A stretch of DNA of 64,000 nucleotides, taken from positions 37,313 to 101,312 of the forward strand of contig JAQUPP010000001.1 of NCBI GenBank assembly GCA_028716665.1, written 5' to 3'. Position numbers and translations under genes: made by a program. Below are positions 5,045-64,000 of this stretch, in pieces (positions within the stretch are counted from its first letter, which is position 1; the number at the start of each line of letters is the position of its first letter). The DNA comes from Patescibacteria group bacterium. Its GTDB lineage: Bacteria; Patescibacteriota; Patescibacteriia; UBA2591; JAQUPP01. The notes under the pieces are model-generated. The model had not been told where the DNA came from. It saw nothing but the letters and a program-made list of their open reading frames with translations, and searched no databases.

Positions 5045-5047
5045 AAA

Positions 5048-6055: not shown

Positions 6056-6067
6056 AATAAATAATAT

Positions 6068-7126: not shown

Positions 7127-7340
7127 ACCAGGTAGTAGAACTTTGACAATTTTTGTGAAATTACCAAAGTTTTAAATTATTAATTAAATTATTTTAGGAA
7201 ACCTTTTTTATTTTATGAATTTTTTGTCCGACCAAAAATCAACAAATTAAATCTTCAACGATATGTTAGATGCGCAAAATATATACCAGATAAAACTTTT
7301 TAGTTGTGAGAGGACAAGTCAAAGTCCACTACCTGGCATA
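7125..7340 (-). repeat. structured repeat element copy 2 (about 216 bp) forming the leader of the AI-2E-like gene
   Basis: Same terminal inverted repeats and internal sequence as copy 1. The gene start codon (7124-7126, revcomp) directly abuts the arm. Confidence 0.75.
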
Positions 7341-7366
7341 AATTTTGATTTATATTTATACTTTAA

Positions 7367-8647: not shown

Positions 8648-8648
8648 A

Positions 8649-20718: not shown

Positions 20719-20723
20719 AAAAA

Positions 20724-21191: not shown

Positions 21192-21205
21192 TTTATCTTT
21201 GATTA

Positions 21206-21448
21206 TTATTTTGAATCTGATTTTTTTGGAGGATATAAATCTAAAATTATATCCAAAATTCTATCTAATATTTTTTCCGGCTCATCTGGCAATTTATGAT
21301 ATAACCCACTGACCAATCCCTTAACTGATTCTAGAAATCTGCCTCCTTGATTTTGAACGCAATCTTTACTTAAAAAAAGTTTTAAATCATTTTCTAATTG
21401 CAATAAAACCTTGGTAAATCCTTCCGGATTTTGAAAAGCTAAAAACAT
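21206..21448 (-). CDS. hypothetical small protein
   Basis: 80-aa ORF with no recognisable homology. Confidence 0.25.
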   Translation of the reverse strand: MFLAFQNPEGFTKVLLQLENDLKLFLSKDCVQNQGGRFLESVKGLVSGLYHKLPDEPEKILDRILDIILDLYPPKKSDSK

Positions 21449-21756
21449 TACGCCTTCCTCTTCTATTTTCCATAATAATATAAATTAACATTAACTCATT
21501 TTAACAAATTCCGCAACATAAAAAATTTATCAGTTAAAATAAAATGAGAGATAAATCTCTGATTTTTCCCTCACTTTATATAGTATCCTCATTATACCAA
21601 CCTTACGCCTATTTTCAAAGTCACTAAATAAAAATAATTTCGCAAGTGTGTAAATTTGGAAAGTTTTTTAAAGGAAAAAATAATTGAATTATCAGTGGCA
21701 ATCTTTAAATCTTGTCTAGCTTTGATAAAAATTATAATTTAAAAAAGATCACTTAA

Positions 21757-25308: not shown

Positions 25309-25963
25309 TTTTTTTTATATCATTTAATTTAATAATCATTTCATTAATTTTTTCTTTAATAAATCCATTTTTGTAATTTTCTTTATTTATCACCAGATAA
25401 GTCGAACTTCTCATTATTTCGTCTACTACAATAAGATTATTTGCAGCCATCGTTTCCCCAGTATCAATATTATCAAAAACAATATCAGCATCATCTGGAG
25501 CATATGCTTCGGTTGATCCCCAAGTTTGAATAATTATATGTGCTAAATTTTTATCAAATGCCCAATTTCCAGCAATATTCTCATATTCAGTCGCAATAAG
25601 CAGCGGCCTCTTTGGGGGGTTAACTATGATATCTTTTTGACTTTTATGGACTGCGGCGACCAATCTCACTTGGTTTAATTTCAAATCAAAAATTGGTTCA
25701 ATCTCACTATAACCAGATTCTTTTATTAAATCAAGTCCGACAAAACCCGCATTAAATTGACCAAGTGCTAATAATTGAGGAATGGCACGAACCTTGACAA
25801 GCTTAGCTTTTATATTTAAATCATTACAAATAGGATTATAGTCTCTGTTATTTTTAAATTTAAATTTGATATCAATTTTTTCCAAAAGACTAAGAACATT
25901 TGACAATAATATTCCTTTAGGCAACGCAAGTCTCATTATATTATTTATTTTCTTCTTCTCCAT
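25298..25963 (-). CDS. hisG: ATP phosphoribosyltransferase (short form)
   Basis: LRLALPKG..., ...DTGETMAANNL... HisG motifs, 221 aa. Confidence 0.7.
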   Translation of the reverse strand: MEKKKINNIMRLALPKGILLSNVLSLLEKIDIKFKFKNNRDYNPICNDLNIKAKLVKVRAIPQLLALGQFNAGFVGLDLIKESGYSEIEPIFDLKLNQVRLVAAVHKSQKDIIVNPPKRPLLIATEYENIAGNWAFDKNLAHIIIQTWGSTEAYAPDDADIVFDNIDTGETMAANNLIVVDEIMRSSTYLVINKENYKNGFIKEKINEMIIKLNDIKKNEK

Positions 25964-27234
25964 AATTCATTTTCTATATCTCTGATTGTAATATGATGTT
26001 TTGCCATAAACATCATTATAAAAAAAACTGAATCTGCAACTTCCCAAATTAAATTATCTCTATCTTTATAATTAATCATTTCATCTATTTCTTCTAAAAT
26101 CTTACCCTTAATTTTTATTTCATTCTTAGCTAAGTTTGAAACAAAAGAATCAGCTTTTGGATTTTTAATCCGATCACAAATAATATTATAGACATCTTCA
26201 AGGGAAAAATATTTATCACCAAAACAAGAATAAGATCCCGTGTGACATGCGCATCCTTTTTGTTTTACTACAAAAATAATAGCATCTTTGTCACAATCAT
26301 ATCTAGCTTTTAAAAGAAATTGTTTATTACCAGAAGTTTCACCTTTTTGCCAAAGATCCTTTCTTGAACGACTATAATATGTAGCAAAATTAGTAGCAAA
26401 AGTTTTTTTAAGCGATTCATGAGAAGAATAAGCTAGCATTAAAACCCCTCCTTTAGTATCTTGAACAATTGTCGGGATTAATCCTTTTACTTTTTTAAAA
26501 TCGAGCACAGAAATAAAAGCTTCGGATAGTTTAATTTTCCCAGTATATAAAGCCATACCGATCTGGGAATTAACATTTAGTTTCTCGAGGTTTTTTATAT
26601 CCTTATATGTAGTTATTCCGCCTGCAATTGTAAATTTATTTGAAGTTAAATTTAAAAATTTTTTAAAAATATTAAAATCTAGACCATTCATTAAACCTTC
26701 TTTATCTACATTGGTAAAAAGAAATTCACTACAATATTCAGACAACTCCTCAATAACCTGTGAGGGAGTTTTTGTTGTTAGATTGGTCCACCCATGATCA
26801 ACTATTTTACCTCCTTTTGTATCAATGGCGACAATAATTCTATCCTTCGGCAATTCTTTTAAAAATTCTTTAGTTGCTTTTGTCCCAATTATTATCTTTT
26901 TTGCTCCTGCAGCTAATAATTCATTGGCCTTTTCTAAATTTCTTATCCCGCCACCAACCCTACATTCTGCTAACTTACAGATTTTTTTTATTAATTTCAA
27001 ATTATTACCCTTATCCATCGCAGCATCAAGGTCAACAACCGCAATTTCTCCATATTTTTTAAAATCTTCAACTAAACTAAAAATGTCAGATCTTTCTAAA
27101 ACCTTAGTTTTTCCTTGCTGCAATTGTACTGCTTTACCTCTTATAATATCAATACTTGGGATTATCATAGATACTTTTATTATATAGCATAAAATAATTT
27201 TCGTCAAAATTAAACGAAACCTATAAATCGTCAC
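25945..27234 (-). CDS. hisA-hisIE: fusion HisA-HisI-HisE (ProFAR isomerase + PR-AMP cyclohydrolase + PR-ATP pyrophosphohydrolase)
   Basis: N-terminal IIPSIDIIRGKAVQLQQG is HisA-like. Middle PTIVQD...YSRSR.DLW.KGETSG...DCD.D...V.Q.G.ACHTG.SCF is HisI. The C-terminal MazG-like segment is HisE. The true start is probably the internal Met near 27168. Confidence 0.7.
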   Translation of the reverse strand: MTIYRFRLILTKIILCYIIKVSMIIPSIDIIRGKAVQLQQGKTKVLERSDIFSLVEDFKKYGEIAVVDLDAAMDKGNNLKLIKKICKLAECRVGGGIRNLEKANELLAAGAKKIIIGTKATKEFLKELPKDRIIVAIDTKGGKIVDHGWTNLTTKTPSQVIEELSEYCSEFLFTNVDKEGLMNGLDFNIFKKFLNLTSNKFTIAGGITTYKDIKNLEKLNVNSQIGMALYTGKIKLSEAFISVLDFKKVKGLIPTIVQDTKGGVLMLAYSSHESLKKTFATNFATYYSRSRKDLWQKGETSGNKQFLLKARYDCDKDAIIFVVKQKGCACHTGSYSCFGDKYFSLEDVYNIICDRIKNPKADSFVSNLAKNEIKIKGKILEEIDEMINYKDRDNLIWEVADSVFFIMMFMAKHHITIRDIENELWRRRK

Positions 27235-27353: not shown

Positions 27354-27429
27354 TGGTGGGCACTAGAGGACTCGAACCTCTGACCTTCACAATGTCAATG
27401 TGACGCGCTACCAACTGCGCCAAGTGCCC
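27354..27429 (-). tRNA. tRNA-Val (GAC), CCA encoded
   Basis: Acceptor gggcact/agtgccc, anticodon stem tcaca/tgtga with loop ttGACat, T-loop ttcgagt, 3' ...cccacca. Confidence 0.85.
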
Positions 27430-27643: not shown

Positions 27644-27718
27644 TGGTGCGCGAGGAAGGAATCGAACCTTCAACCTCGTCTTTATCAGAGACGCGTTCTA
27701 CCATTGAACTACTCGCGC
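27644..27718 (-). tRNA. tRNA-Ile (GAT), CCA encoded
   Basis: Acceptor gcgcgag/ctcgcgc, anticodon loop ctGATaa, T-loop ttcgatt, 3' ...gcgcacca. Confidence 0.85.
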
Positions 27719-28276: not shown

Positions 28277-29802
<1,526 letters not shown>

Positions 29803-37312: not shown

Positions 37313-39202
37313 TTAATTTGTTGGTTGATTAATTTGAGGTTCCGGCACTATTGTTGTTTCCTTGCCGATCAGCCAAACTTCAGGCCAAGGTTTATAATGA
37401 CTTTTCCAAACATCTTCTCTGATGGTGCCATTTGAAAAAGTAATAATATTTTTAAATTCCGCGTCAGCCCCTTGATGAGCTGATTCAACTTTCTTTTTTA
37501 CGCCCGGCGCCAGGGTATCTGTCTCAATATATCTAATCGGACCCGGCTTGGTGATGTTAAAAATTTTAGGCTTGGTGGTTTCAATTTTTCGGCCGTCCGG
37601 TGTGCCATATAATTCAAAAATCAAATTATTTCCTTCTATTTTTGTCTGAATTAAAAGATAGTGTTCTGTGTCATTGATAAATCTTAAATCCGGTTGAGGT
37701 GAATATATAGTAGCATCCATACCGGCCGGTTCATAGTAAACAACCCGATAAGAATGAGGGGAGCGCTGAGTGATAGACACACCTGCATTAAGAGCCACCC
37801 TAAACATAGTTGTCCCTAATTGACAAAGACCGCCTCCATATTCCGGCACTGTCCGATCTCCTTTAATGACCAATTCCGGAAGAAAACCGGCTTCTTTATC
37901 AACCGGGCCGATCGCATTAATAGTAGAAAATTCTTCTTCGGGTTTAATCAGAATGCCATTTAATTTTTGAGCTCCGACTTTAATGTTAACGCGACGATTT
38001 TGCGGGCTGCCGCTAAAATCGGAAACTCCTCGACCGACCAATTCTTTAATACCCAAGTCATTAATGTTTTCAACAATTTGGGTCGGCTTAGTTTCTTCGA
38101 CAATTAATTTGATTTCTTTATTTTTCTGAATTTCTTCGCCAGTTTTATTTTGCGACAAATCATCTGAGAATGATTGAATAATTGCCTGAGCAGAAGCATC
38201 AAAATTCATCTTCATGCCTGATTGACCGGCAGAGAACTCAACCACTTTATCATTTTCTATTTTAAATTGAGCATCAATCGATTCAACATCAATTTCCGCG
38301 GCCAGTGGTTTTAAAAATTCTTTAATTTTTTCCTGATTAAGAGTCAAACTTATTTGATTGCTGCCATCTTTGGTAAATTCCAGCCATTCAGCCCATTTGG
38401 TTGAAGGCAATTTTTTCTCTTTTTTGCCGTATTGCAAAATATAAGATGCCGAATTAAATAAATCTTGAGCTTGATTGAAAATTTTTGAACATTCACTAAT
38501 TTTTATTTGAGGTTCTAACTCCTTAACCGGAATCTGCACTTCAATATTTTGGAAAAATCGCAAATTGGTTTCCATTTGTTTGATTCCATTTTCATAGTCC
38601 AAAATAAACCCCGGTTTTTCTTCCAATAAAACCAATTCTTGCTTATTTAATTCAATTCTGGCGTTTTGAACCGGTTTTTCCAATGATTTAAAATTTTCTT
38701 CCAAAATTTGCTGAAGCCCTGATTTATCTATTTGAACTTCCGGATAAATTGTTTTGCCTTGAATAATTTCCAAAAATCTTTGAAAAATATTACCTTGACG
38801 TCCGATGGCAAAAGCTTTTTCCGCGGTTAAATCAGTGTTAAAATTGATAATTGAACGGCTTAAATCCGGATCGGCCAAGCCGATTGAATTAGTTTCCGTA
38901 TTTATTCTTTTCTCCCCCAAATCAGTTTTGGCATAAAAAGAAAAACCTTGAGATTCCATTTGATCAACTGTTTCACTTAATAAATCCTTGGCTTCTTGCA
39001 ATTTCAAACCGCCCAAATCCAGGCCATTGCAATAAAATTTCGGATAAATGGCCAAGGCGTATTTTTTTTGAAACATGAGACAATAACCACTCAGAGCAAG
39101 TAAAATAACAATAATAAATAAAAAGAAAAATATTATTTTTTTATGATTCGGCCTGCGCACAAGATTATGATTTTGTTTGGTTAAATTTAAACGAGGAGCC
39201 AT
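37313..39202 (-). CDS. VanW-domain cell-wall protein
   Basis: C-terminal GGGLCQLGTTMFRVALNAG...YEPAGMDATIY VanW-like motif. N-terminal TM helix. Confidence 0.6.
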   Translation of the reverse strand: MAPRLNLTKQNHNLVRRPNHKKIIFFFLFIIVILLALSGYCLMFQKKYALAIYPKFYCNGLDLGGLKLQEAKDLLSETVDQMESQGFSFYAKTDLGEKRINTETNSIGLADPDLSRSIINFNTDLTAEKAFAIGRQGNIFQRFLEIIQGKTIYPEVQIDKSGLQQILEENFKSLEKPVQNARIELNKQELVLLEEKPGFILDYENGIKQMETNLRFFQNIEVQIPVKELEPQIKISECSKIFNQAQDLFNSASYILQYGKKEKKLPSTKWAEWLEFTKDGSNQISLTLNQEKIKEFLKPLAAEIDVESIDAQFKIENDKVVEFSAGQSGMKMNFDASAQAIIQSFSDDLSQNKTGEEIQKNKEIKLIVEETKPTQIVENINDLGIKELVGRGVSDFSGSPQNRRVNIKVGAQKLNGILIKPEEEFSTINAIGPVDKEAGFLPELVIKGDRTVPEYGGGLCQLGTTMFRVALNAGVSITQRSPHSYRVVYYEPAGMDATIYSPQPDLRFINDTEHYLLIQTKIEGNNLIFELYGTPDGRKIETTKPKIFNITKPGPIRYIETDTLAPGVKKKVESAHQGADAEFKNIITFSNGTIREDVWKSHYKPWPEVWLIGKETTIVPEPQINQPTN

Positions 39203-40387: not shown

Positions 40388-42613
40388 TTAATATCCTCTT
40401 GTTTTTAACACGGCAATACTTGTTCCGCCCTTAAATTGTTTAGTATAAGCATAAAACTGACTAAGCTGCTTGCTGGAAAAACTGAAAACATTAACCTGGG
40501 GTTCCATGCCTTTTTTGGGACCGGTAATAATTTCCGCCTTTTGATCACCGTCAAAATCAGCCGTGACAAGATTAATTCCTCCATAAAATTCGCGAGAGTA
40601 AGCCAAAAATTGAAGTCTGAGTTGGAGAAATTCACTGGAAAAAACTCTCACATAAGGAGAAGCGCCCGAGGCCACACTGGCTAAAATTTCATCTTTCCCA
40701 TCACCGTCAACATCGCCTGAAGCGACATTCACGCCGCCCAAAAAAGTTTTATTAAAAGCGAAGAAATTTAATTCCATAACTCCCTGACCGTCTAAAACCC
40801 TGACATGAGGACCGCCTCCAAGACCTGCGCCGGTGATAATTTCGTCTTGACCGTCAGCATCAATATCTCCTGAAGCAATATTCACCCCGCCTTTAAAACT
40901 GGATTGATAAGCAAAAAATTCATTTTTTAAATTACCGGAAAAATCAAAAATTTTAATTTGAGTATTACTGGTCATTCCACTGGTGATAATTTCGTCTTTC
41001 CCATCACCGTCAACATCACCCGAAGCGACATTCACGCCGCCGGTAAAAGTTTTTGCATAAGCGAAAAATCCACTTTTCGGCTGGCCGTAAAGATCAAATA
41101 TTCTGACATGAGGTCCGCCGCCCGGACCTGCGCCGGTGATAATTTCGTCTTTCCCATCACCGTCAACATCACCCGAAGCGACATTCACGCCGCCGGTAAA
41201 AGTTTTTGCATAAGCGAAAAATCCACTTTTCGGCTGGCCGTAAAGATCAAATATTCTGACATGAGGTCCGCCGCCCGGACCTGCGCCGGTGATAATATAA
41301 TAAGATTGGGGCAATTCTCCGGCCTGATTAAAAGTACGTTCTATGGTTTTATAAGCATTAACCCGACCGCTGCCCAACTGACCGACTAAATTGGAATTTA
41401 AAGAATCAATATTGTCAGCCTGACTGATAATAAAACTTTGAACTTGTTTTTGAGTCAGTAGCGGGTTAACAGACCAAACTAATGCCGCCAACCCGGAAAT
41501 GACCGGCGCGGCAATGGAAGTGCCGGACCAATAACCTCCGTAATATTCTTTAAAATTTTCGTAATTTGAATTATAAACCAGCGGGCCATAAATGCGCGTT
41601 CCCGGCGCCGAGATATCAATACATTTTGAACCATAATTGGAAAAAGACGCTTTTTTATCAGCGCTGTCCGTAGCTGCTACGCCAATAATAAAATTTTCAT
41701 CATCTTCGTCCAAACAGACCGGATAATTAGGCGTGTTATTGAGATTCACCGGCTCGCCTGTTGTTTCGTTGCCACCGGCTGCCACGACAATCACTCCTCT
41801 TTGCCAAGCATTTTTTAGAGCTTCAGCTAAAAAATAACTTTTATTGGTGCCGACAAAACTTAAATTGATAACTTTTACTCCATTGTCAACCGCGTATTTA
41901 ACCGCTTGAATAACATGCTCTACTGTTCCCGACCCTTCACTGTTTAAAACTCTTAAAGACATAATTTTACTTTTAAAAGCTATACCGGCCGTACCCGCGG
42001 AATTATCTCCTGTTGCGGCAATAATGCCCGCGATTAAGGTGCCGTGATGAATGCCATTGGCGTCAAAAACTTCATCAAATTTAGGCTTTGGGTTTGGCAC
42101 ATTATTTATGAAATCCCATCCATTTATATCATCAATGTAACCGTTATGATCATTATCAATACCATCTCCTTTGATTTCATCTTTATTGGACCAAATATTA
42201 TTTTTTAAATCAGGATGATCAATGTCCACGCCTGTGTCTAAAACCGCCACCGTGATATCAGTGTTCCCTCCATGGGTTAAATCCCATGCCTGCGGTATTT
42301 GAATTTTATCCAAATACCATTGTTCAAAATAAAGCGGATCATTGGGAATATAAGCGATTTTAAATGAATAATTCGGTTCAGCCCATTCTATTTCCGATCG
42401 TTCAAGAATAATTTTTTGAAATTCTTCAATTGGCAAATCATTTGATTCGACATTATAAATTTTTGAAGAATCTTTCAATTTAATTAAAAGTTCTCCTGTT
42501 TCCGGAATAGTGGAAGAATGAGCTATTTTAGGGAAATTGAAAAAAGTTGTCATACTCAAAATAACAACTAAAAAAATAACAAATATATTTTTTTGATTAA
42601 TCAATTTCATCAA
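40388..42613 (-). CDS. secreted subtilisin-like serine protease (S8) with C-terminal FG-GAP/beta-propeller repeats
   Basis: Catalytic triad VAVLDTGVD / HGTLIAG / GTSIAAPVISG. Repeated ASGDVDGDGKDEIITGAGPGGGPHVRIFD FG-GAP-like units. Signal peptide present. Confidence 0.8.
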   Translation of the reverse strand: MMKLINQKNIFVIFLVVILSMTTFFNFPKIAHSSTIPETGELLIKLKDSSKIYNVESNDLPIEEFQKIILERSEIEWAEPNYSFKIAYIPNDPLYFEQWYLDKIQIPQAWDLTHGGNTDITVAVLDTGVDIDHPDLKNNIWSNKDEIKGDGIDNDHNGYIDDINGWDFINNVPNPKPKFDEVFDANGIHHGTLIAGIIAATGDNSAGTAGIAFKSKIMSLRVLNSEGSGTVEHVIQAVKYAVDNGVKVINLSFVGTNKSYFLAEALKNAWQRGVIVVAAGGNETTGEPVNLNNTPNYPVCLDEDDENFIIGVAATDSADKKASFSNYGSKCIDISAPGTRIYGPLVYNSNYENFKEYYGGYWSGTSIAAPVISGLAALVWSVNPLLTQKQVQSFIISQADNIDSLNSNLVGQLGSGRVNAYKTIERTFNQAGELPQSYYIITGAGPGGGPHVRIFDLYGQPKSGFFAYAKTFTGGVNVASGDVDGDGKDEIITGAGPGGGPHVRIFDLYGQPKSGFFAYAKTFTGGVNVASGDVDGDGKDEIITSGMTSNTQIKIFDFSGNLKNEFFAYQSSFKGGVNIASGDIDADGQDEIITGAGLGGGPHVRVLDGQGVMELNFFAFNKTFLGGVNVASGDVDGDGKDEILASVASGASPYVRVFSSEFLQLRLQFLAYSREFYGGINLVTADFDGDQKAEIITGPKKGMEPQVNVFSFSSKQLSQFYAYTKQFKGGTSIAVLKTRGY
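40982..41287. repeat. perfect 153-bp x 2 tandem duplication inside the subtilase FG-GAP region
   Basis: 40982-41134 is identical to 41135-41287, with a further diverged unit at about 40830-40980. It encodes a duplicated 51-aa FG-GAP unit. Confidence 0.8.
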
Positions 42614-53998: not shown

Positions 53999-55048
53999 AT
54001 GACTATTTTAGACGATTTGAAACAAATTAGAAAAATAGACAAATTAAAAATGGCTGACTTCATTTCTGAACTGCCGGAACAATGTTTGGCGGCTTATGAG
54101 CAAGCTCTAAAAATATCTCTGCCCAAAGATTGTCATGAAGTGAAAAATATCATTATCTGCGGCATGGGTGGATCGGCTATTGGCGGTGAATTGGCTAAAG
54201 ATTTGGTCCAAAATAAAATTACTGTTCCGATTATCATCAATCGTGATTTTAATTTACCGATTTTGGTTGATGAAAAAAGCTTGGTGATTCTAGTCAGTTA
54301 TTCCGGCAATACTCAAGAAACCATAAACTGCTTTAAACAATCCTTAAAAACAAAAGCAAAAAAATTTGTCATTACCGGCGGCGGTGAATTGGAAAAAATG
54401 GCAAAAAAAGAAAATTGCCCTATTTTTAAATTTAAATATTCGGCGCCTCCTCGGGCTTCTCTGGCCTATTTGTTTATACCAATCTTGGTTATTTTTGAAA
54501 AAATGGGTCTGGTAAATTTAAAATCATGGCAAATTACCGAATCTTTAAAAGAACTTCAAAAAATCAATAAAAATTTTAAACCTGAAACATTGACGGAAAA
54601 AAATAAAGCCAAATTCTTGGCTTATTCTGTTTTTGATCGCCTGCCGATTATTATCGCTCCATCTCATTTTTCTTCTTTGGCTAATCGTCTGAAAAATCAA
54701 TTGGCGGAAAACGGTAAAAATTTCGCTTTTTCCGAAACCTGGCCGGAAATTTTTCATAATTTCATTGAAAGTCGTCTACCCTTACGAATGGAAGACGATC
54801 TTATTTATTTATTTTTGGACGATTTAAATCAAGATAAAGAAATTAAAAAATCTTTAATATCTTTTCAAGATTTATTGGATAAAAAAAGAAATTACAAAGA
54901 AACAATTTCTCCTTTTGGCGAAAATTATTTCACTCAATTTTTATCTTTTATTTTAATAAGCGATTGGTTAAGCTTTTATTTGGCTATTTTGAATCAATCT
55001 GACCCCACCCCGGTTGAAAACATTAATTGGTTAAAAAAACAATTATAA
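53999..55048 (+). CDS. bifunctional phosphoglucose/phosphomannose isomerase (SIS domain)
   Basis: SIS motif IICGMGGSAIGGE, 349 aa, archaeal-type PGI/PMI architecture. Confidence 0.6.
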   Translation: MTILDDLKQIRKIDKLKMADFISELPEQCLAAYEQALKISLPKDCHEVKNIIICGMGGSAIGGELAKDLVQNKITVPIIINRDFNLPILVDEKSLVILVSYSGNTQETINCFKQSLKTKAKKFVITGGGELEKMAKKENCPIFKFKYSAPPRASLAYLFIPILVIFEKMGLVNLKSWQITESLKELQKINKNFKPETLTEKNKAKFLAYSVFDRLPIIIAPSHFSSLANRLKNQLAENGKNFAFSETWPEIFHNFIESRLPLRMEDDLIYLFLDDLNQDKEIKKSLISFQDLLDKKRNYKETISPFGENYFTQFLSFILISDWLSFYLAILNQSDPTPVENINWLKKQL

Positions 55049-56760
55049 TGCGAGCGCTGAGAATTGTATATTCTTATATAATAAAAAATTGGTCCTGGCT
55101 CAGTTACTGGGTCATTTTTAGTCTTGGCTTTATTGTATTCCTTTACATCAATATGGCTCCTCCTTGCATTTTAGATGGAGATGGATTTTATCACGTCAAA
55201 ATAGCTTTAATGTTGAAGGAAGGTAAAATAATCCAAGATTTTCCTTGGACGCAATTTACAACTTATAAAGACCTTTTTGTTGACCACCATCTTGGTTATC
55301 ACTGGCTATTGGTTCCATTTTTATCTTTGCCAACGCCGAGCAACTTAGACGCTTTTTCGGCCGAAATTGATCCTTTAATTAAGGCAAAATTAGCCACAAC
55401 TTTCTTTGCCGCCCTGATATTTGTGATAATTTATTGGTTTTTTCGCTTTCTTAAAACAAAAAAATCCTTGATTTGGACACTGCTCTGTTTCTTGGTTCCT
55501 GTTTTTTTAGTCAGACTTTCTTTTGTTAGAGCGCCGGCAATCTCAGTCGGTATTTTAATTTTGGGATATTATTTGATTTTAAAGAAAAAATATTTACTTC
55601 TATTTTTGCTTTCTTATTTATATGTTTTAACTCACGGCGCTTGGCCTCTAATTATTGTAGTAACCGTTATTTACGGCCTTGCCGGTTCTTTAAAATATTT
55701 GATTAATCATCTTTATATTTTAAAACTGAAATCTGAAAATAAAAAAATAAATATTTTTACTTTTTGTTTTTCGCATTTATGGCGAGGATTTTTCAAAAAG
55801 AATAATTTAAAACTGATTTTTTCTTGTATTCTGGGATCGACTGCCGGACTGATTTTAAATCCTTATTTCCCTAAAACTCTTCCTTTTTATTGGTTCCAAA
55901 CCGTCAAAATAGCAATTTTAAATTATCAAAGTAAAATCGGTGTCGGAGCTGAATGGTATCCCTACCCCATGGACAGCTTGGTTTTTTTCAATTTACCAAT
56001 TTTTATTCCTTTGGTAATTTCCATCGCCTGGTTTCTCACTTTTATAAAAAAACAAAGGAGGACGGTTTGGTTTTTCTTTTTACTTTCTGTTTTTTTCTTT
56101 TTATATACTTTGAAATCCAGAAGAAATGTAGAATATTTTATCCCGGTGGCTATTTTTTTCAGCGCCCTTATATTCAACCAAATAATTAAAAAAATAAACT
56201 GGCTGAAAATTAAAACCCAAATTAAAAAAAATTTTCAAGGATCTAATAATATATTTTATTTTATCTTTACGGTATTTTTCATTATTTTAAGCGGTTATTT
56301 TTTAATAAATTATATTGATCAAAGTATCTATCAATTGCGGAGATCTGAGCTCGACGACCCGTCTATTAATCACCTTCAAAGAGCTTCTGGGTGGTTAAAA
56401 CAAAACAGCCAACCGCAAGAAATAGTTTTTCAAAGTAACTGGGATATTTTTCCCCAATTATTTTATTTTAATAATCAAAATTATTACATTAATGGGCTGG
56501 ACCAAACCTTCATGTACGAGAAAGATAAAGATCTATATAAAATATGGTTGAATTTGGTTTCCGGCCGCGCTGATCCTCAAACTGCTGCTCAAATTATCAA
56601 AGAAAAATTTCATGCCTCTTATATTCTTTTGGACAAACAAGACAAAGAATTCGCCAATTTGCTGAAAAAATCAAAATTAGAAAAAACTTACGAAGACGAC
56701 GAGGCGATTATTTATAGAGTAGGGGTAATTTCTCCTACTATGCAATCTCCCTCGTTGTGA
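55048..56760 (+). CDS. polytopic membrane protein, putative GT-C family glycosyltransferase
   Basis: At least 12 TM helices with an extracytoplasmic C-terminal domain. Start probably ATG at 55048, overlapping the PGI/PMI stop. Confidence 0.45.
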   Translation: MRALRIVYSYIIKNWSWLSYWVIFSLGFIVFLYINMAPPCILDGDGFYHVKIALMLKEGKIIQDFPWTQFTTYKDLFVDHHLGYHWLLVPFLSLPTPSNLDAFSAEIDPLIKAKLATTFFAALIFVIIYWFFRFLKTKKSLIWTLLCFLVPVFLVRLSFVRAPAISVGILILGYYLILKKKYLLLFLLSYLYVLTHGAWPLIIVVTVIYGLAGSLKYLINHLYILKLKSENKKINIFTFCFSHLWRGFFKKNNLKLIFSCILGSTAGLILNPYFPKTLPFYWFQTVKIAILNYQSKIGVGAEWYPYPMDSLVFFNLPIFIPLVISIAWFLTFIKKQRRTVWFFFLLSVFFFLYTLKSRRNVEYFIPVAIFFSALIFNQIIKKINWLKIKTQIKKNFQGSNNIFYFIFTVFFIILSGYFLINYIDQSIYQLRRSELDDPSINHLQRASGWLKQNSQPQEIVFQSNWDIFPQLFYFNNQNYYINGLDQTFMYEKDKDLYKIWLNLVSGRADPQTAAQIIKEKFHASYILLDKQDKEFANLLKKSKLEKTYEDDEAIIYRVGVISPTMQSPSL

Positions 56761-56781: not shown

Positions 56782-58089
56782 TTGTTTATATTTATGCCAA
56801 AAGTTAATGTTTCAAAACAATTTTTTATATTTGGATTATTAACTGAAATAATTTATTTGTCCTTTTATTTTATTGAACCATTAAGAAAATATTTAGGCGA
56901 TCAATGCATTACTCTCTGCAATGATCGCCTATTTTTATTAATAGTTGGATTATTAATTCTGGCATTAATTTTTTACATTTTTGGTTACAAACAAGTAATT
57001 AAAAAGAATGTTAATTTAAAAACAATTATCATTTTTTTTATTATTTTTAATTTGACCTTATTGTTTATTTGGCCAATCGGTTCAACCGATATATTCACTT
57101 ATATTTATCAATCCAGGGTTTTATCAGTACATCACGCCAACCCATATTTAACGCCTTATAGCGCATTTCCTAACGACAGTTTCTATCATTTGATCAAAAA
57201 TTCATGGTCAACAAACACAACGCCGTATGGGCCGTTTTGGACGATTATCAGTAGCATATTAAGTTTTATCGGGAAAAATAGTTTATTGTTTTCCCTGCTG
57301 ATTTTCAAGCTCTTTTTTATCTTGATTAATTTTTTAAATCTTTTTTTAATTTATAAAATTTCAAATAGCGCCAAAGCTGTTTTTCTTTATGCATGGAATC
57401 CTTTAATTTTATACGAGTTCGCTCTTAACGGACATAATGACGTCTTAATTATTTTTTTCGTCTTACTTGGTTTGCTTTTCTTTTTACGCCAAGATAAAAT
57501 AAAAAATTATGTTTTATCTTGGATTTTTTTAATGTTTTCTGTGTTAATTAAATTCTATACAATTATATTCTTGCCGATATTCTTTTTAATCTCTTTGTTT
57601 AATCTTAAAACAAAAAAAGAAAAACTGTATTTTTCCTTAACGGCCGTTTTAACAACCATAATAATTGCAATACTTTGCTTTTTACCTTTTTGGGGCGGCT
57701 TAAAAGGTTTCTCCGGGGTCAAAACACAGCTTCTAAAAACAGAAATGATATTTTCATCAATTGCAATATTAATACTTTCATTGCTGTTTTATTTCTTGCA
57801 TCTAAACAACTATTTCAATTTAGCCAATATAATCGGCAAAATAATATTTTTAACTTCTTATTGCGCAATAACAGTAAAAATATTTTTTGATCACTGTAAA
57901 TTAATTAAAAATGATATTTTAAAATACTGTTTTTTTGTTTATTTTATTTTTATCATAACCGCGGTCAGTTGGTTAATGCCCTGGTACCTTGTTTTATTGA
58001 TAGTTCTATTGATTTTAAATTTAAAAAACAATACTCTTCTTTATTTTATCACTCTCTATGGTATATTATATTACACTATTCTCAGATAA
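56782..58089 (+). CDS. polytopic membrane protein, putative GT-C (DUF2029-like) mannosyltransferase
   Basis: Many TM helices. Loop motif YQSRVLSVHHANPYLTPY...TPYGPFW. Confidence 0.45.
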   Translation: MFIFMPKVNVSKQFFIFGLLTEIIYLSFYFIEPLRKYLGDQCITLCNDRLFLLIVGLLILALIFYIFGYKQVIKKNVNLKTIIIFFIIFNLTLLFIWPIGSTDIFTYIYQSRVLSVHHANPYLTPYSAFPNDSFYHLIKNSWSTNTTPYGPFWTIISSILSFIGKNSLLFSLLIFKLFFILINFLNLFLIYKISNSAKAVFLYAWNPLILYEFALNGHNDVLIIFFVLLGLLFFLRQDKIKNYVLSWIFLMFSVLIKFYTIIFLPIFFLISLFNLKTKKEKLYFSLTAVLTTIIIAILCFLPFWGGLKGFSGVKTQLLKTEMIFSSIAILILSLLFYFLHLNNYFNLANIIGKIIFLTSYCAITVKIFFDHCKLIKNDILKYCFFVYFIFIITAVSWLMPWYLVLLIVLLILNLKNNTLLYFITLYGILYYTILR

Positions 58090-58093
58090 TTAA

Positions 58094-59491
58094 ATGAAAA
58101 ATATATATAAAAATTTATTATTGACAATAAAAGACAAACTGGCAGTTAACAGCTGGTGGCTGTTTTTATTTTTAATTTTATTATTTTTCCATTGGGCTCG
58201 CCTCCCCAGCAGTGACGAAGGGGTTGTCACAAACGGTGCGTGGAATTTAATAAATCACAAGCAATTATATATTGATTTTTTTGAATTTATCTCTCCGGGC
58301 AGCTTTTATTTAATTTTTTGGTTTTGGGAAATCTTTGGTATTCATTATTTTATAGCTAATTTTTTGGCTATTTTAATCGTTTTTTTGAGCTCAATAGGCA
58401 TATACAGAATCACTCAAACAATCTCCAAAAACAAATTCAATCGTTTTTTTCCTCTTGTTTTTATCATCGCTTCCATTTATTGGCCGATTATCAATCATAA
58501 TACCTTTAACATATTTTTCGTCATTTGGGCTGTTTATTTTTTTCTCAAAGGATTATCTGATTATTCAAAAAATAATTTTATCATCAGCGGATTATTATCC
58601 GGCTTGTCTGTCTTATTTCTACAGCAAAGAGGAATTGCCTTGCTTCTGGCTTTATCGTCATTTTTAATCATATTTTTAATTAAAGAGAGAAAATATTTAT
58701 TATTAAAATTAAATTTTTATTTTCTCATTTTTTCCTTTCTCCCGCTTCTACTTTTACTGAAATGGCCTTTAAAAATATTATACGAAAATTTAATTATCTT
58801 TCCTCTCCTCAATTATACGGAAACGAATAAATACCCTTATTATTTATTCTTGTTTTTCTTGGTCATTTTATTTTTAGTGATCTGGTTTTTAAAAAATGAG
58901 AAATCCAAAAAAATTTGGTTGTTATTTTATGTTCAGTTTTTTCTGCTCCTATCTGTTTTGCCACGGCCTGATTTTTATCATATTTCTTTAATTATATTCC
59001 CCCTTTATTCCATTTTCCCCGTATTATTGGGGGAAATAAAAGGAACCAATCTCTTGGGAAAAACCGTTTATTTTATAATATCATTGGTCGTCTTATTAAT
59101 TATTTATCCTTCAATACTGATTATATGCTCCCAGTCCCTTTTCTATTCGGTAAAAAATGATAAAATTATCTCTTATATAAGGGATAATTGCCCGGGCACT
59201 TATTTGTATGCCGGCCCCTTTATGCCTGATATTTATTTTGAAACAAAAAAAATAAACCCTACCCCATATTCTGTTTTGATAACCAATCAGCAAACTAAAG
59301 AACAATTTCTGGAAGCGAAAAAAATGCTCGAAAAATACCAGCCAACTTGCGCCGTGTTGAACTATAATATAGTGGCTAAATTTAATTATGATAAAAATAA
59401 CCCGGTTGACAATTATATTTTAAATAATTATAAACCGAGTTTTCAAGATGGGGACACTTATGTTTATAGAATTTTGCCTGCCAATTTATAA
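58094..59491 (+). CDS. polytopic membrane protein, putative GT-C glycosyltransferase paralog
   Basis: Many TM helices and a soluble C-terminal domain. Third consecutive paralog. Confidence 0.4.
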   Translation: MKNIYKNLLLTIKDKLAVNSWWLFLFLILLFFHWARLPSSDEGVVTNGAWNLINHKQLYIDFFEFISPGSFYLIFWFWEIFGIHYFIANFLAILIVFLSSIGIYRITQTISKNKFNRFFPLVFIIASIYWPIINHNTFNIFFVIWAVYFFLKGLSDYSKNNFIISGLLSGLSVLFLQQRGIALLLALSSFLIIFLIKERKYLLLKLNFYFLIFSFLPLLLLLKWPLKILYENLIIFPLLNYTETNKYPYYLFLFFLVILFLVIWFLKNEKSKKIWLLFYVQFFLLLSVLPRPDFYHISLIIFPLYSIFPVLLGEIKGTNLLGKTVYFIISLVVLLIIYPSILIICSQSLFYSVKNDKIISYIRDNCPGTYLYAGPFMPDIYFETKKINPTPYSVLITNQQTKEQFLEAKKMLEKYQPTCAVLNYNIVAKFNYDKNNPVDNYILNNYKPSFQDGDTYVYRILPANL

Positions 59492-60188
59492 CGAAGAAAA
59501 AATATTAAAAAATAACATTTTAAAGCTATTGAATTATTGCAATAGTCAAAATTTTAATTTTGACTGGCAAATAATTATTCTTAATAATGGCTCGACGGAT
59601 AATTCTGAAAAAATTTTACGAGAATTGAATAAAGAATATCCTCAAAAAATAAAGATAGATAACATCCAACAACCGGGCAAAGGACGAGCTATAAAGTTAT
59701 ATTGCCTAAAAAGCCAAGCTGATATTATTGTTTATATGGATATTGATTTGGCTGTTTCTTTAAAGAATATCCCTGACTTGATTGATCCAATTATTAAAGA
59801 AAGATATGACTTGGTGGTTGGATCCAGATTGTTGTCGACTTCAAAAATAGAAAGATCTTTTATCAGAAGTTTAAGTTCAAAAGTTTATAATTGGTTGTCA
59901 AAAATATTGTTTAATCATAATCTCTCCGACCTGCAATGTGGATTTAAAGCGATTAAAGCCGATATTTTTAAAAAAATTATCCCTTATATTAATGACAATA
60001 AATGGTTTTTTGACACGGAATTAATTATTTTTACCAAATATTTTGGTTATAAAATAAAAGAGATACCGGTTGATTGGCAAGAAAACAGGTATGATCAAAG
60101 AAAAACCAAGGTTCGCTTATTGAAAGATAGTTTTAATTTTATCTTGAATTTAGTAAAATTAAAAATGCGGCTTTATAAAGGGTTTTAA
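59448..60188 (+). CDS. GT2 polyprenol-phosphate sugar synthase (DPM1-like)
   Basis: CLPIYNEE...NNGSTD...DIDL(DAD-like)...QCGFK motifs. Start probably the Met at 59460. Confidence 0.7.
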   Translation: MGTLMFIEFCLPIYNEEKILKNNILKLLNYCNSQNFNFDWQIIILNNGSTDNSEKILRELNKEYPQKIKIDNIQQPGKGRAIKLYCLKSQADIIVYMDIDLAVSLKNIPDLIDPIIKERYDLVVGSRLLSTSKIERSFIRSLSSKVYNWLSKILFNHNLSDLQCGFKAIKADIFKKIIPYINDNKWFFDTELIIFTKYFGYKIKEIPVDWQENRYDQRKTKVRLLKDSFNFILNLVKLKMRLYKGF

Positions 60189-60258
60189 ACCCTTTACTTT
60201 TCGCTCGCTTGATAATAAAATCCGCAAATAAAAAATATCCAAAAAATCAATAAAAAAT

Positions 60259-60295
60259 CTAAAACCCTCTCATAACGAGAGGGTTTTAGATTTTA
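60259..60295. terminator. bidirectional terminator hairpin
   Basis: ctaaaaccctctc-ataacg-agagggttttag. Confidence 0.6.
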
Positions 60296-60312: not shown

Positions 60313-60747
60313 TTAAGATCCCAAACCAATTTTTTGCGGCGGGTTTAATGAATTAATAACAAAAGTGGCAATCGCGTAGGATAAGAGAATAATCACTAAT
60401 CCTACTATTGCGCTAAGCATCAAGGCCTTAGCCTGACTAATTTGTTTTTCCTGACCACCGGAAATCATCCACATTACTCCGCCAACTATCAATAAAATTG
60501 TCAGAATTAATCCGCTTAATCCGAGGATAATCTTAACAATTCTACCTATAGAAGTCGGTAAGTCAGTGTTGGATTTAAGATTGGCTTGCTGACCGGTTTG
60601 ATTCAAAAGTTGTAAAGAATCTGGCTCCTCGGCTAAAACATTCGGTCTAACCATATTCGGTAACCAGATACTGATTAAGAACACGGCTATCAACAAGATA
60701 TAAAAGACCTTCTGCTTTTGGTCGAGTTTTTTCATATTCAATTTCAC
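60313..60747 (-). CDS. secreted two-helix small membrane protein, VirB2/TrbC-pilin-like paralog 4
   Basis: Signal/TM helix, then ...IVGGVMWMISGGQEKQISQAKALM... and a second hydrophobic helix. Shares the GGxxWMxSxG...K...K motif with its three neighbours. Confidence 0.45.
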   Translation of the reverse strand: MKLNMKKLDQKQKVFYILLIAVFLISIWLPNMVRPNVLAEEPDSLQLLNQTGQQANLKSNTDLPTSIGRIVKIILGLSGLILTILLIVGGVMWMISGGQEKQISQAKALMLSAIVGLVIILLSYAIATFVINSLNPPQKIGLGS

Positions 60748-60753
60748 TTATTA

Positions 60754-61119
60754 TTAATTCGTAACATCTTGTATTCTTGCAGTAAGATAACTGGCAACAG
60801 CATAGGCTAAGACAACGATAATAATACCAATTACACCAGCAGCCATTAATTTCTTGGCTTCAGCAATTTTAGTTTCATCGCCACTTGAAGTCATCCATTT
60901 AAAACCACCGGAGATAATGATGACTGCGCAGACTAAACCTAAAAAGCCCAAGACAATGCTCATAATTCTACCCATGGCGGTAGGGAGGTCGGTATTACCA
61001 TAATTCGCGGCGCTGCGGAAGTTCTCTAAACCATTGTTCATTTCTTGCGCATTAGCGACTAATGGCATAACTAAACCCACCACTAAGACCAAAGTCATTG
61101 CTAATAAACATTTTTTCAT
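60754..61119 (-). CDS. secreted two-helix small membrane protein, VirB2/TrbC-pilin-like paralog 3
   Basis: Signal peptide ...PLVANA|QE, then ...ISGGFKWMTSSGDETKIAEAKKLM... and a second helix. Confidence 0.45.
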   Translation of the reverse strand: MKKCLLAMTLVLVVGLVMPLVANAQEMNNGLENFRSAANYGNTDLPTAMGRIMSIVLGFLGLVCAVIIISGGFKWMTSSGDETKIAEAKKLMAAGVIGIIIVVLAYAVASYLTARIQDVTN

Positions 61120-61285
61120 TTTATTTTTCCTCTTTCGTCCAACCTTTTAAGTAGGACGATTTATTAAAAAAACGACCTTGAAAGTTAATATTTAATTAAA
61201 GACTAACTATAATATTATTAAATCACCTTAAAAGCTCTTTGTCAATTTGGATTTGTGGATAAAGTTTATCCATAATCACAACTAT

Positions 61286-61720
61286 TTATTTATTTGCGAA
61301 AGCTTTTAAAAGAAATTCGACTATGGCGTAGCTTAAAAATATGAAAGCCATACCCAGAATTGCCCAAACAATAGCGTTCTTGCCGGTCTTTATTTTATCC
61401 GCATTACCACCTGAAGTCATCCAAGTAAAACCTCCATAAATAAACATTACTAGAGCGATAACACCAACAAATCCCAAAATATATTTTAAAACATCACCAA
61501 TAATAACAGGGATGGATCGATGACCCAATGGTTGAGGTAGCTCTAACTCTTCTTCGGACACAACTGTATTGGCAGTATTAGCAGCATTCTGTGCCATACA
61601 AGGATGAATCAATAATAAAGAGCCAACTACCAAACAATTTAAAATTAAAAGAAAGTAAAATTTTTTAGTCATAAAGTTGTATATTTTATCGCAAACCACT
61701 AAAGAATTCACGATAATCAT
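61286..61720 (-). CDS. secreted two-helix small membrane protein, VirB2/TrbC-pilin-like paralog 2
   Basis: ...IYGGFTWMTSGGNADKIKTGKNAIVWAILG... Same architecture. Confidence 0.45.
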   Translation of the reverse strand: MIIVNSLVVCDKIYNFMTKKFYFLLILNCLVVGSLLLIHPCMAQNAANTANTVVSEEELELPQPLGHRSIPVIIGDVLKYILGFVGVIALVMFIYGGFTWMTSGGNADKIKTGKNAIVWAILGMAFIFLSYAIVEFLLKAFANK

Positions 61721-61755
61721 ATACCCTTTAGTGGTATATGATTTTAATTAATTTT

Positions 61756-62433
61756 CTATTTTGTTTCTTTACAGCAGATGGTTGTTGTGCCTGAACATTT
61801 ACCTGCACTGCATTTAAAACCTTCCACTTTATTGTCTTTATAATCATTATATCTGGATCCCGCTTCAATACATGAACCATCGTCAACTTGATCAACCTGA
61901 CATTTTTCTTGCGATAAATAACTTTCCGTGTGGAGGGCCTGCATTAATGCTTGGACTATAACATAGGCGCTTAGAACTATAACCATTCCAACAACCGCTC
62001 CCATAATAATAGCCTTGCCTTTTTTAACTTTTTCTTCAGAACCGGCAGAGGTCATCCATGATATTCCGCCAAAAATAAACAGAACCAAAGCAATCACTCC
62101 TAAATATTTTAAAATTATATTGGCAAGATTTAAATACAACCTTTCGAAATCATTAACCGTACAATCGCCGCAACAAGCGCAAATCGGTTGATTAATTAAT
62201 CCACCCACATGACAATTCGTTACATTATTGGTTCCCTGACAGAAACAATCACATTTTTTCCCTTCGTCTTCGACGCCACAAGTACAACTGGAAATTATAT
62301 TTTGAGTTTTTAATACACCGTTTTCAGTAATATTTTTTGTGCCGATAATTCTTTCGTATTTTTGAGCATTAGCAAAGCTGCCGATTGAAATTAAAAAAAT
62401 GGCGATAAAAATTATAAAAATTATTTTTTTCAT
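61756..62433 (-). CDS. pilin-like paralog 1 with extra N- and C-terminal Cys-rich modules
   Basis: Core ...IFGGISWMTSAGSEEKVKKGKAIIMG... flanked by CTCGVEDEGKKCDCFCQG...CACCGDC and a C-terminal KCQVD...CSAGKCSGTTTICC. Confidence 0.45.
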   Translation of the reverse strand: MKKIIFIIFIAIFLISIGSFANAQKYERIIGTKNITENGVLKTQNIISSCTCGVEDEGKKCDCFCQGTNNVTNCHVGGLINQPICACCGDCTVNDFERLYLNLANIILKYLGVIALVLFIFGGISWMTSAGSEEKVKKGKAIIMGAVVGMVIVLSAYVIVQALMQALHTESYLSQEKCQVDQVDDGSCIEAGSRYNDYKDNKVEGFKCSAGKCSGTTTICCKETK

Positions 62434-62677: not shown

Positions 62678-64000
62678 TTATAAAGTTAAATTTACTTTTT
62701 GAACGCAATAATCAAGGGCTTGTTTAATTTCTTTTGTGCCGGTTAAAACATTTCTTACCATCTCCTTAAAAGATTCTTCCACTAAGGAATAATTTTTCCC
62801 TTGATACCAAGTTTGAGCCGTTAGCACGCCTTTGACAAACGGAGCTAAATCAAAATCTTCCAATTGAAATTGAATTAAAGAACGAATCGCGGTCGGATGC
62901 TTGGTTTTTTCCAAGAAAGTTTTATTATTCGCTTCTTCAGTGGCATATAAAAGAAACGCCCAAGATTCATCAGGGTGAGTATTTTTTTTGGAAATTGTTT
63001 CTATCGGATAACTGGCAAAATTAACCTCTTTTAATGATCCGGTAATTTGCGGGGCTTTAATAATATCAAAATTTAATTTTGGCGCTTTTTCTTTAATGGT
63101 CGGCAAGAAATCAGAATAGCCGAACAAGAAAGCTGTTTTTCCTTGAATAAAAGCGTCTAAAGAATTTGTCATTTTTTCATTCCAGCAATAAATTTCTTTG
63201 CCCGGTGTGGCAAAATCAGTATAAAATCTTAAAGCTTCTTCGCCCGGGAAATAACTTGCGTCATCAACCGCCGGACGATTAAAAGATGCTTGGCCGCTCT
63301 CGCTAATCATGGTTGTGCCATTTTGCAGCATTAAAAGAGATAAAATATCCGACAAATTGGCGACATTATCAATTCCGCCTAGAGCTGTTCCTGATTGCAC
63401 AAAATTACCATCTTTATCTTTGAATGTCAAAAGCCTGACGTCATCGGCAAATTCCTGCCAATTAGCCGGCGGATTAACAATACCGGCATTATTTAAAAGT
63501 TCTTTATTATAATAGAGAACTAAAATATCAAGGGATAAAGGCAAACCGTAAAGTTTATTATCAATAATCACATCCTTTGGCACCGTATCAACATATTTTT
63601 CTTGCAGTTCTCTTAAAACAGGGGTTTTCTTTTTTTCTTCAACCACTTTTGTTTCTTTTTTGAAAGTTCCGGTGGTCACTTTTCTGGCCAAGGACAATTC
63701 ATCAGGAATATTCAACGGTGAAATCTTGGTTTGATATTTTCTTAGCCAAGTATTGGGAATGGAAAAAATATCCGGCCCCTTATCTTCCGCCCAAGCTTCA
63801 AGTAATGTTTGCTCATATTCTTCCGGTCTGATTAATCTGTAAGTAATGGAAACATGAGGATATTTCGCGTGAAATCCATTGATAATACTGTCAAAAGCGC
63901 CTTGATCATCAGTTGTTCGCCAATAAACTAAATTAATCGGCTGAATTTTTTCTGCCAATTTTTTAGGAGTACCCGCGCAACCAAAACCGGTGGTTATCAA
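62678..64000 (-). CDS. ABC transporter extracellular solute-binding protein (family 1, sugar type), N-terminus outside window
   Basis: SBP_bac_1-like sequence, with a lipobox-like GFGCAG near the window edge. Confidence 0.7.
   Translation of the reverse strand: MITTGFGCAGTPKKLAEKIQPINLVYWRTTDDQGAFDSIINGFHAKYPHVSITYRLIRPEEYEQTLLEAWAEDKGPDIFSIPNTWLRKYQTKISPLNIPDELSLARKVTTGTFKKETKVVEEKKKTPVLRELQEKYVDTVPKDVIIDNKLYGLPLSLDILVLYYNKELLNNAGIVNPPANWQEFADDVRLLTFKDKDGNFVQSGTALGGIDNVANLSDILSLLMLQNGTTMISESGQASFNRPAVDDASYFPGEEALRFYTDFATPGKEIYCWNEKMTNSLDAFIQGKTAFLFGYSDFLPTIKEKAPKLNFDIIKAPQITGSLKEVNFASYPIETISKKNTHPDESWAFLLYATEEANNKTFLEKTKHPTAIRSLIQFQLEDFDLAPFVKGVLTAQTWYQGKNYSLVEESFKEMVRNVLTGTKEIKQALDYCVQKVNLTL

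Follow-up and report, generated by a model that had tools for sequence, protein, structure and literature searches.

A tandem set of four VirB2-like pilin genes with a cysteine-decorated first member on a Patescibacteria chromosome

We analysed a stretch of 64,000 nucleotides (hereafter the window) from contig JAQUPP010000001.1 of a Patescibacteria group bacterium (assembly GCA_028716665.1), in which four consecutive genes, W1 to W4, encode VirB2-like pilins of the kind associated with type IV secretion systems (T4SSs). The sequence data show the family to which they belong, the architecture of their precursors, the order of the genes and their conservation, gene for gene, in other genomes. 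The explanation that best covers the whole of the evidence, and that we hold to be on balance probable, is that the four genes belong together as a fixed set of T4SS pilin paralogs of VirB2 type, polymerised by a T4SS ATPase encoded at a distant locus. Pilin arrays of this kind have already been published for Patescibacteria, and the finding is therefore correct but largely known. The initial annotation of the locus had likened the proteins to pilin-like families reported from candidate phyla radiation (CPR) bacteria, which proved to be the correct filing, as the sequence comes from a Patescibacteria metagenome-assembled genome (MAG).

The four genes occupy positions 60313-62433, all on the minus strand, with W1 at 61756..62433 (225 amino acids), W2 at 61286..61720 (144 amino acids), W3 at 60754..61119 (121 amino acids) and W4 at 60313..60747 (144 amino acids from a GTG start). 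The open reading frames (ORFs) were thus found exactly where four tandem secreted two-helix paralogs had been announced. In public gene calls W4 begins with the ATG at position 60735, and the protein probably has the resulting 140 amino acids. An internal ATG at 61672 in W2 would yield a 128-amino-acid precursor with a more typical signal peptide. W3 is preceded by its own 166-bp spacer and an AGAGGA Shine-Dalgarno-like sequence. Directly after W4, and between convergent genes, lies a terminator-like hairpin (60254..60294, minus strand; 19-bp stem followed by a T-run), at which transcription of the cassette probably ends. Copies identical to the window pilins occur in two NCBI assemblies, both labelled Patescibacteria group bacterium, and in one Logan contig derived from the Sequence Read Archive, and a fourth contig, of 0.2-1 Mb, carries the gene. 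The counterparts of W1-W4 are already annotated as "pilin" by NCBI, with PF18895 matches precomputed on the public gene calls.

The paralogs share 31-36% identity. The columns G89, G90, W93, M94, S96, G98 and K107 are invariant in their alignment and spell out GGxxWMxSxG...K, the shared motif on which the initial annotation had been built. All four proteins begin with a hydrophobic, signal-like segment that, judging from hydropathy and cleavage motif, ends at an AxA-type site (ANA/Q, ANA/Q, CMA/Q and VLA/E across the paralogs), beyond which the hydropathy profile of each contains two more hydrophobic stretches of ~20 residues. The two hydrophobic helices anticipated behind a cleavable-looking signal peptide are also borne out by AlphaFold2 models, in which W3 folds as a helical hairpin (helices 45-76 and 82-120) with a core pLDDT (predicted local distance difference test) of ~90. 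In the model of W1, a four-stranded beta module (strands within 24-76) precedes the hairpin (helices 93-127 and 133-166), and the C-terminal module is of low confidence. From its N-terminus, W1 comprises the signal peptide, a module rich in cysteines, a hairpin of two VirB2-like helices and a tail that is again Cys-rich. Its 16 cysteines fall in the N-terminal extension (10, residues 50-91) and the C-terminal tail (6, residues 178-221), with none in the helices, in agreement with the terminal Cys-rich modules first noticed on this gene. These modules gave no match to a Pfam family and no significant structural match.

The family assignment rests on profile comparisons. All four proteins exceed the gathering score of PF18895 (T4SS_pilin; 26.6 bits), with 35.2 bits for W1, 38.8 for W2, 48.5 for W3 and 35.4 for W4 (E 1e-8 to 9e-13, well beyond what chance would give), in alignments running from model position 3, 4 or 10 to position 71 of 71. 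The next pilin family, TrbC/VirB2 (PF04956), stays below its threshold of 27.9 bits in all four (15.8, 19.7, 20.3 and 21.1 bits in ascending order); by the curated threshold, the window proteins are related to this family but are not members of it. Both Pfam families had been suggested at the outset, and only the membership in T4SS_pilin was upheld. NCBIfam NF045849 is passed by W3 alone (41.3 bits against a cut-off of 40, model positions 15-77 of 80), with W1, W2 and W4 below the cut-off at 24.4, 31.3 and 26.9 bits, and the name of this equivalog should not be transferred to the window pilins. As a side observation, the passing score of W3 hints that VirB2-like proteins of this type may belong to the monoderm MPF-FATA lineage (MPF, mating pair formation) itself, a question left open in PMC12102498. 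When a profile of the family (44 members) was searched against 177,635 PDB sequences, the sole matches were two distinct Agrobacterium VirB2 sequences from T-pilus structures; these matches are weak (E 1.9 and 3.3), and the pattern TDxxT..LGxxG..G..WM is clearly held in common. A phage origin of the pilins was dropped after a PHROGs search of them returned no matches.

Weak matches to unrelated membrane families (DctQ, TctB, DUF898 and others) accompany the pilin match. Such company, like the generic hairpin fold, is what one would meet if the four proteins were ordinary small membrane proteins and owed their Pfam match to hydrophobic composition alone. We regard this as extremely improbable and as largely refuted already: PF18895 alone passes the curated cut-off, and does so in all four proteins; their conserved non-hydrophobic motifs (TDLPT, GGxxWMxSxG and KxxxAK) are matched in VirB2 and in the hundreds of homologs that the window pilins possess; and genes of the same family adjoin T4SS ATPases, as detailed below.

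The relatives were studied in a sample of 80 loci (cited here by L numbers) from species-representative genomes, fetched with the family alignment and representing one broad clade, in which locus genes were mapped with hidden Markov models (HMMs) built from the window's own genes; counts of locus genes are given out of 86. The best-matching loci include members of Falkowbacteria, Komeilibacteria, Kerfeldbacteria, Uhrbacteria and Magasanikbacteria. A syntenic relative is classified as ABY1, and the window organism is probably ABY1-like.

Core identity to the same-position counterparts in L004 reaches 49% for W1, 41% for W2 and 50% for W3, against 31-33% to the paralogs within the window, and W2 has L004_2 and L006_2 as position-specific orthologs. 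Because the same-position orthologs of other genomes are closer than the neighbours within the window, this comparison indicates that the paralogs are old, position-specific and specialised subunits, not recent duplicates. The first gene in particular belongs to a conserved class. Orthologs of W1 retain the CxCQGSN..CHVGGLIS.PICACCGDCT module, and in some of its relatives a PG_binding_1 domain replaces the C-terminal tail. Among pilins recognised with the core HMM, at least two cysteines outside the hairpin are found in 79% of the 66 located directly downstream of a solute-binding-protein (SBP) gene, compared with 11% of the 401 others. The hairpin core is essentially Cys-free, and where any cysteine lies outside it the number of such cysteines is even in 94% of the pilins. 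The restriction of cysteines to the extensions of W1, together with the PG_binding_1 domain of its relatives, fits termini located outside the cell, as in the VirB2 topology. The earlier suggestion that W1 might be a tip or adhesin variant is plausible. The decorated class is conserved, and both decorations would be expected on the outer side of the membrane.

These comparisons bear on a role for the array as a store of interchangeable major-pilin variants serving surface variation or adaptation to host strains, as proposed for the VirB2 paralogs of Bartonella and Anaplasma and suggested for Patescibacteria in PMC12102498. The identity among the window paralogs is near the mean of 25% published for arrays, and their common core could in principle fill the same position in a filament. 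However, each position has its own orthologs, closer than the paralogs of the same genome, the gene order is fixed, and the first gene is structurally distinct and Cys-decorated with the bias towards SBP-adjacent genes given above, which makes a store of exchangeable variants quite improbable in our judgement.

The link between these pilins and secretion machinery comes from other loci of the family. In L055, L060 and L078, one or two pilins adjoin, or lie at most two genes from, proteins of 818-856 amino acids that pass the Pfam cut-offs of DUF87, TrwB_AAD_bind and, variously, T4SS-DNA_transf and TraG-D_C, with sub-threshold NCBIfam matches of TraD and VirD4 type; in L085, a pilin adjoins a 607-amino-acid Walker-A protein without a Pfam match. 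On domain content, the ATPases are confirmed as belonging to the T4SS (VirD4/VirB4) superfamily in three of these four loci. The adjacent pilins are full-length relatives of the W3 type (36-45% identity, E ~1e-28). Moreover, two genomes with a window-like cassette encode an ATPase of the superfamily elsewhere, namely GCA_003104935.1, with the cassette in L006 and the ATPase in L093 on another contig, and GCA_020632415.1, where cassette (L084) and ATPase (L094) are ~430 kb apart on the same contig. The former genome is listed as VirB4-positive in Table S1 of PMC12102498. The initial annotation had considered the case of a genome devoid of any secretion ATPase; this was looked into for the two relatives with the same cassette, and in both an ATPase is present. 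Separate loci for pilin and ATPase have a precedent, since in archaeal Ted systems the two can likewise be encoded at distant places (PMC9905601).

Some further observations concern the surroundings of the ATPase. The protein (~820 amino acids, with a DUF8128 N-terminal domain and a TrwB/TraG-like ATPase domain) is found in a conserved micro-locus (L093 9063-14701, L094 9026-14654, L060 and L078 ~4000-9800) with the order LepA, a two-helix membrane protein of ~145 amino acids, a soluble protein of ~155 amino acids, the ATPase, a protein of ~200 amino acids and DnaX; LepA was recognised in L093 and L094, and its presence in L060 and L078 is deduced from gene size. No VirB6-like polytopic protein is evident near this micro-locus. 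A split version is encoded ~8 kb downstream in L094 (Nomurabacteria; 20637-22442), where a 503-amino-acid DUF8128-only protein is followed by a 582-amino-acid protein with DUF87, TrwB_AAD_bind and zf_Tbcl_2 domains.

Under the polymerised-pilin explanation, each precursor would be exported by Sec and cleaved by signal peptidase. The mature pilins would then be membrane proteins with N- and C-terminus on the outer side and the short polar loop SxGxE/DxK facing the cytoplasm. A T4SS ATPase complex whose genes lie elsewhere in the genome would extract them from the membrane and polymerise them, as for VirB2. The product would be a filament or conduit crossing the wall of a single-membrane cell, through which the cell would make contact or exchange with its host. 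The likely major subunit is W3, the most canonical of the four, a role we propose for it because it is the most conserved, has ATPase-adjacent orthologs and is endowed with its own spacer and a strong Shine-Dalgarno-like sequence. W1 would be a specialised subunit (tip, base or adhesive unit) stabilised by extracellular disulfides, and W2 and W4 would be further non-interchangeable subunits.

Several observations weigh against this explanation. Neither the 64-kb window nor the 10 kb adjoining its right end yielded a VirB4, VirD4 or VirB6. The scan of the window covered 48 of its 56 ORFs of at least 120 amino acids, including all those of at least 169 amino acids except three nested on the opposite strand of larger genes, and the products were housekeeping proteins, glycosyltransferases or unassigned, in keeping with the initial statement that no VirB4 or VirD4 sits beside the pilin genes. 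The T4SS-superfamily ATPase family is large, with more than 7,500 relatives, and none from the window genome appeared among the best 120 of the 7,554 relatives of the Komeilibacteria ATPase. Within 10 kb of the large arrays, no T4SS ATPase was found in any examined; in this clade such arrays adjoin SBP and glycosyltransferase genes rather than T4SS genes. A VirB6-like gene was identified in no locus examined. The scores below the PF04956 threshold point the same way, and fold searches were uninformative, as thousands of unrelated helical hairpins score equally. In favour of the pilin reading, the one Foldseek match with appreciable probability for W1 is a conjugation pilus subunit of Aeropyrum pernix (PDB 8dfu; probability 0.77, target template modelling score 0.66), but it is not significant (E 1.7). 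The division into major and minor subunits is conjectural. According to reviews, a T4SS pilus is still to be observed in a Patescibacterium, and the role of the system is "completely unknown".

Part of this evidence would suit a different arrangement, in which VirB2-descended hairpins are not polymerised and instead act as membrane subunits of an envelope complex, together with the SBP and glycosyltransferases and independently of a T4SS ATPase, for instance in glycan handling, wall anchoring or nutrient capture. A gene for an SBP of the SBP_bac_1 family is immediately upstream of a pilin gene and co-directional with it in 58 of the 86 loci, the two being separated by a median of 5 bp. A GT2 glycosyltransferase gene (34/86) and a gene for a polytopic membrane protein that we call F530 (47/86) adjoin the arrays even where the outer flanks differ. 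The lack of a T4SS ATPase within 10 kb of any large array examined, as well as the peptidoglycan-binding domain of W1 relatives, which suits a membrane-anchored and wall-contacting protein, also agrees with such a complex. On the other hand, related genomes have W3-type orthologs at the loci of T4SS ATPases, genuine pilus subunits are homologs of the family, no ATP-binding cassette (ABC) permease or ATPase partner for the SBP is encoded among the neighbouring genes of the locus, the archaeal Ted systems likewise have pilin and ATPase at distant loci, and the shared SBP/GT2/F530 neighbourhood may reflect nothing but inherited synteny within one clade. We rate an ATPase-independent envelope complex as possible but unlikely, and keep a polymerised, T4SS-dependent pilin set as the preferred reading.

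A broader proposal joins both sets of features: the large VirB2-like arrays of ABY1-type Patescibacteria would be more than a reserve of T4SS pilins. They would constitute a conserved surface module comprising an SBP, a first pilin that is rich in disulfides or binds peptidoglycan, between three and six plain pilins, a polyprenyl-phosphate sugar synthase (GT2) and GT-C-like transferases including F530, and producing a T4SS-derived appendage. We advance this proposal very tentatively and give it a small chance of being right. If it held, the pilins would be glycosylated, or the SBP would work at the filament, or both, and the appendage would bind the host or take up its molecules. Glycosylation has not been reported for solved bacterial conjugative pili (PMC9905601). 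We found no publication on SBP coupling, on the Cys-decorated first gene or on the GT2 and F530 neighbours of pilin arrays, and the neighbourhood of SBP, decorated pilin and glycosyltransferases appears not to have been described before.

In the window, the SBP_bac_1 gene (62678..64000, minus strand, cut by the window end; Pfam E 1e-24; 457 amino acids in the public gene call) is directly upstream of W1 on the same strand, separated from it by 244 bp, the largest gap seen, with a weak terminator-like site inside. Across the 58 loci (L006, L008 and L013-L092 among them), the SBP gene, an "orphan" with no permease or ATPase partner close by, is followed directly by the first, usually Cys-decorated, pilin. 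The SBP gene is a conserved partner of the decorated pilin in related genomes, and the two products may be functionally linked. The SBPs were considered as lipoproteins and rejected as such, since a lipobox-like motif is present in only 1 of 58, the N-terminus being instead a hydrophobic signal or anchor.

On the other side, convergent with the cassette, the GT2 gene (59448..60188, plus strand; Pfam Glycos_transf_2) encodes a protein resembling polyprenyl-phosphate sugar synthases, with sub-threshold matches to AglJ, ArnC and Dol-P-hexose transferases. It is a conserved neighbour of the cassette and may be linked to it in function. Between GT2 and F530 the window has two genes of GT-C type, one encoding a PMT_2-like membrane glycosyltransferase (58094..59491, plus strand; Pfam PMT_2 27.8 against 26.1 bits) and the other an MptA/MptB-like polyprenol-phosphomannose-dependent mannosyltransferase (56782..58089, plus strand). 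The latter matches NCBIfam MptB (37.9 against 40 bits) and TIGR03459, both below threshold, and is assigned to Pfam PF26314 in the public gene call. The possibility that the PMT_2-like gene is a pseudogene was rejected, its 465-amino-acid ORF being intact and its DNA identical in both assemblies; the 89-amino-acid public product at this place (L001 12943-13212) is an annotation or indexing quirk.

F530 (55027..56760, plus strand; probable start at 55153, giving 535 amino acids) has an N-terminal DGDGFYH loop motif (DGDxFYHAK in the family) and a C-terminal soluble domain. It returned no Pfam, NCBIfam or PDB sequence matches, and aligns weakly with its PMT_2-like neighbour in hhalign (probability 22%); our guess is that it may represent a new GT-C-like glycosyltransferase family. 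With homologs in 47 of the 86 loci and in 32 of the 44 full-length loci, at a median distance of 133 bp to the closest pilin and on the opposite strand in 46 of 47, F530 is the most consistent non-pilin neighbour of the arrays; homologs are found, for example, at L004 15132-16820, L006 11737-13356, L008 8262-9869 and L009 8019-9599. The flanking by GT2 and F530 persists in at least two gene layouts with differing outer flanks.

One of these, layout B (of Falkowbacteria type; L008 5171-7196, with equivalents in L023-L089), sets the SBP gene and a decorated pilin apart, as a pair, from a six-gene main array. The intervening block holds four small conserved genes of ~219, 183, 127 and 118 amino acids, which encode an HTH_25/Glucodextran_B-like protein, a methyltransferase, a protein without assigned function and a UPF0102/NERD-like protein, and is followed by GT2 and F530. 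Concerning the sample itself, many loci (L014, L017, L018, L022, L023 and ~30 others) labelled "uncultured Gammaproteobacteria bacterium" carry the typical patescibacterial layout of SBP, pilin array, GT2 and F530, and the organism labels of such "Gammaproteobacteria" third-party annotation (TPA) MAGs look wrong.

The window is otherwise an ordinary piece of chromosome, with a 16S rRNA gene, tRNAs, tmRNA, gyrA, infB, ruvC, glgA, mreB and genes for purine and histidine synthesis. The complete 16S rRNA gene (28278-29800, minus strand) is followed by tRNA-Ile and tRNA-Val (27644-27718 and 27354-27429) and then by histidine-biosynthesis genes; a 23S rRNA gene is absent from the 64 kb, so the rRNA operon is unlinked. 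Genes for IMP dehydrogenase, adenylosuccinate synthetase, HisG, a fused histidine-biosynthesis/HisIE protein and MreB (11914-13413, 23872-25308, 25298-27234 and 5048-6055) are also encoded, and the biosynthetic capacity of the window is above that with which Patescibacteria are usually credited. Likely surface or wall proteins include a 741-amino-acid subtilase with FG-GAP repeats (40388-42613, minus strand), a 629-amino-acid VanW/PG_binding_4 protein (37313-39202, minus strand) and a 278-amino-acid PG_binding_1 protein (2075-2911, plus strand).

Patescibacteria account for a large part of the diversity of bacteria and spend their lives attached to other microbes, from which they obtain what they need. 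Only one species has been tested, Ca. Southlakia epibionticum ML1; there the T4SS is essential, as is its pilin array, a predicted pilin series within the T4SS cluster (PMC10633639, Wang et al.). Reviews draw attention to the prospect that a bacterium with one membrane might form a pilus with its T4SS, and a 2025 review treats this pilin-bearing system as the sole exception to Gram-positive T4SSs without VirB2. The window locus is a further example of such an array. The old and non-interchangeable subunits, the disulfide-rich or peptidoglycan-binding class, the SBP coupling and the regular glycosyltransferase neighbours are testable leads, and these comparative features could guide work in tractable Saccharibacteria on the composition and binding of the filament.

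Among known systems, the closest are the published Patescibacteria arrays. A search of 3,035 Patescibacteria genomes with PF18895 and PF04956 yielded 441 VirB2 arrays, each with 2-11 genes, spread over 383 assemblies, and a pilin gene was near virB4 in only 1135 of 1948 assemblies (PMC12102498, Quinonero-Coronel et al.). An array was defined there as at least two VirB2-like genes of a Patescibacteria genome that stand in tandem or have a single non-pilin gene between them, and the window cassette, with its four consecutive PF18895 genes, is an array by this definition. It resembles the published arrays in phylum, Pfam family, tandem order, chromosomal location and low paralog identity (31-36% here, 25% there), and in the lack of relaxase or conjugation genes nearby. 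Unlike the S. epibionticum array, which lies inside a T4SS cluster, the window array is separated from any T4SS gene by tens of kb or more, and whereas published arrays are reported to be most abundant in Microgenomatia and Saccharimonadia, it appears ABY1-like.

With Agrobacterium VirB2 and IncP TrbC, the window pilins have in common a cleavable signal peptide, a pair of hydrophobic helices with a short loop between them and the TDxxT..LGxxG..G..WM pattern; they differ in falling below the PF04956 threshold, in their single-membrane host and in the lack of adjacent virB3 and virB4. To our knowledge, large Cys-rich ectodomains such as those of W1 are not a feature of VirB2 or TrbC. The Mbov_0395 family (NF045849) of Mycoplasma integrative and conjugative elements (ICEs) is alike in consisting of small two-helix pilin-like proteins from a wall-less or single-membrane lineage with an MPF-FATA-type T4SS, and W3 passes its model; the other three paralogs do not, and neither an ICE context nor integrase or conjugation genes are present at the window locus. 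The archaeal CedA1 and TedC pilins (PMC9905601; PDB 8dfu) have no detectable sequence similarity to the window pilins, and nothing at the window locus points to DNA import, but they too are VirB2-fold hairpins of one-membrane organisms, TedC being additionally provided with a signal-peptidase-I site.

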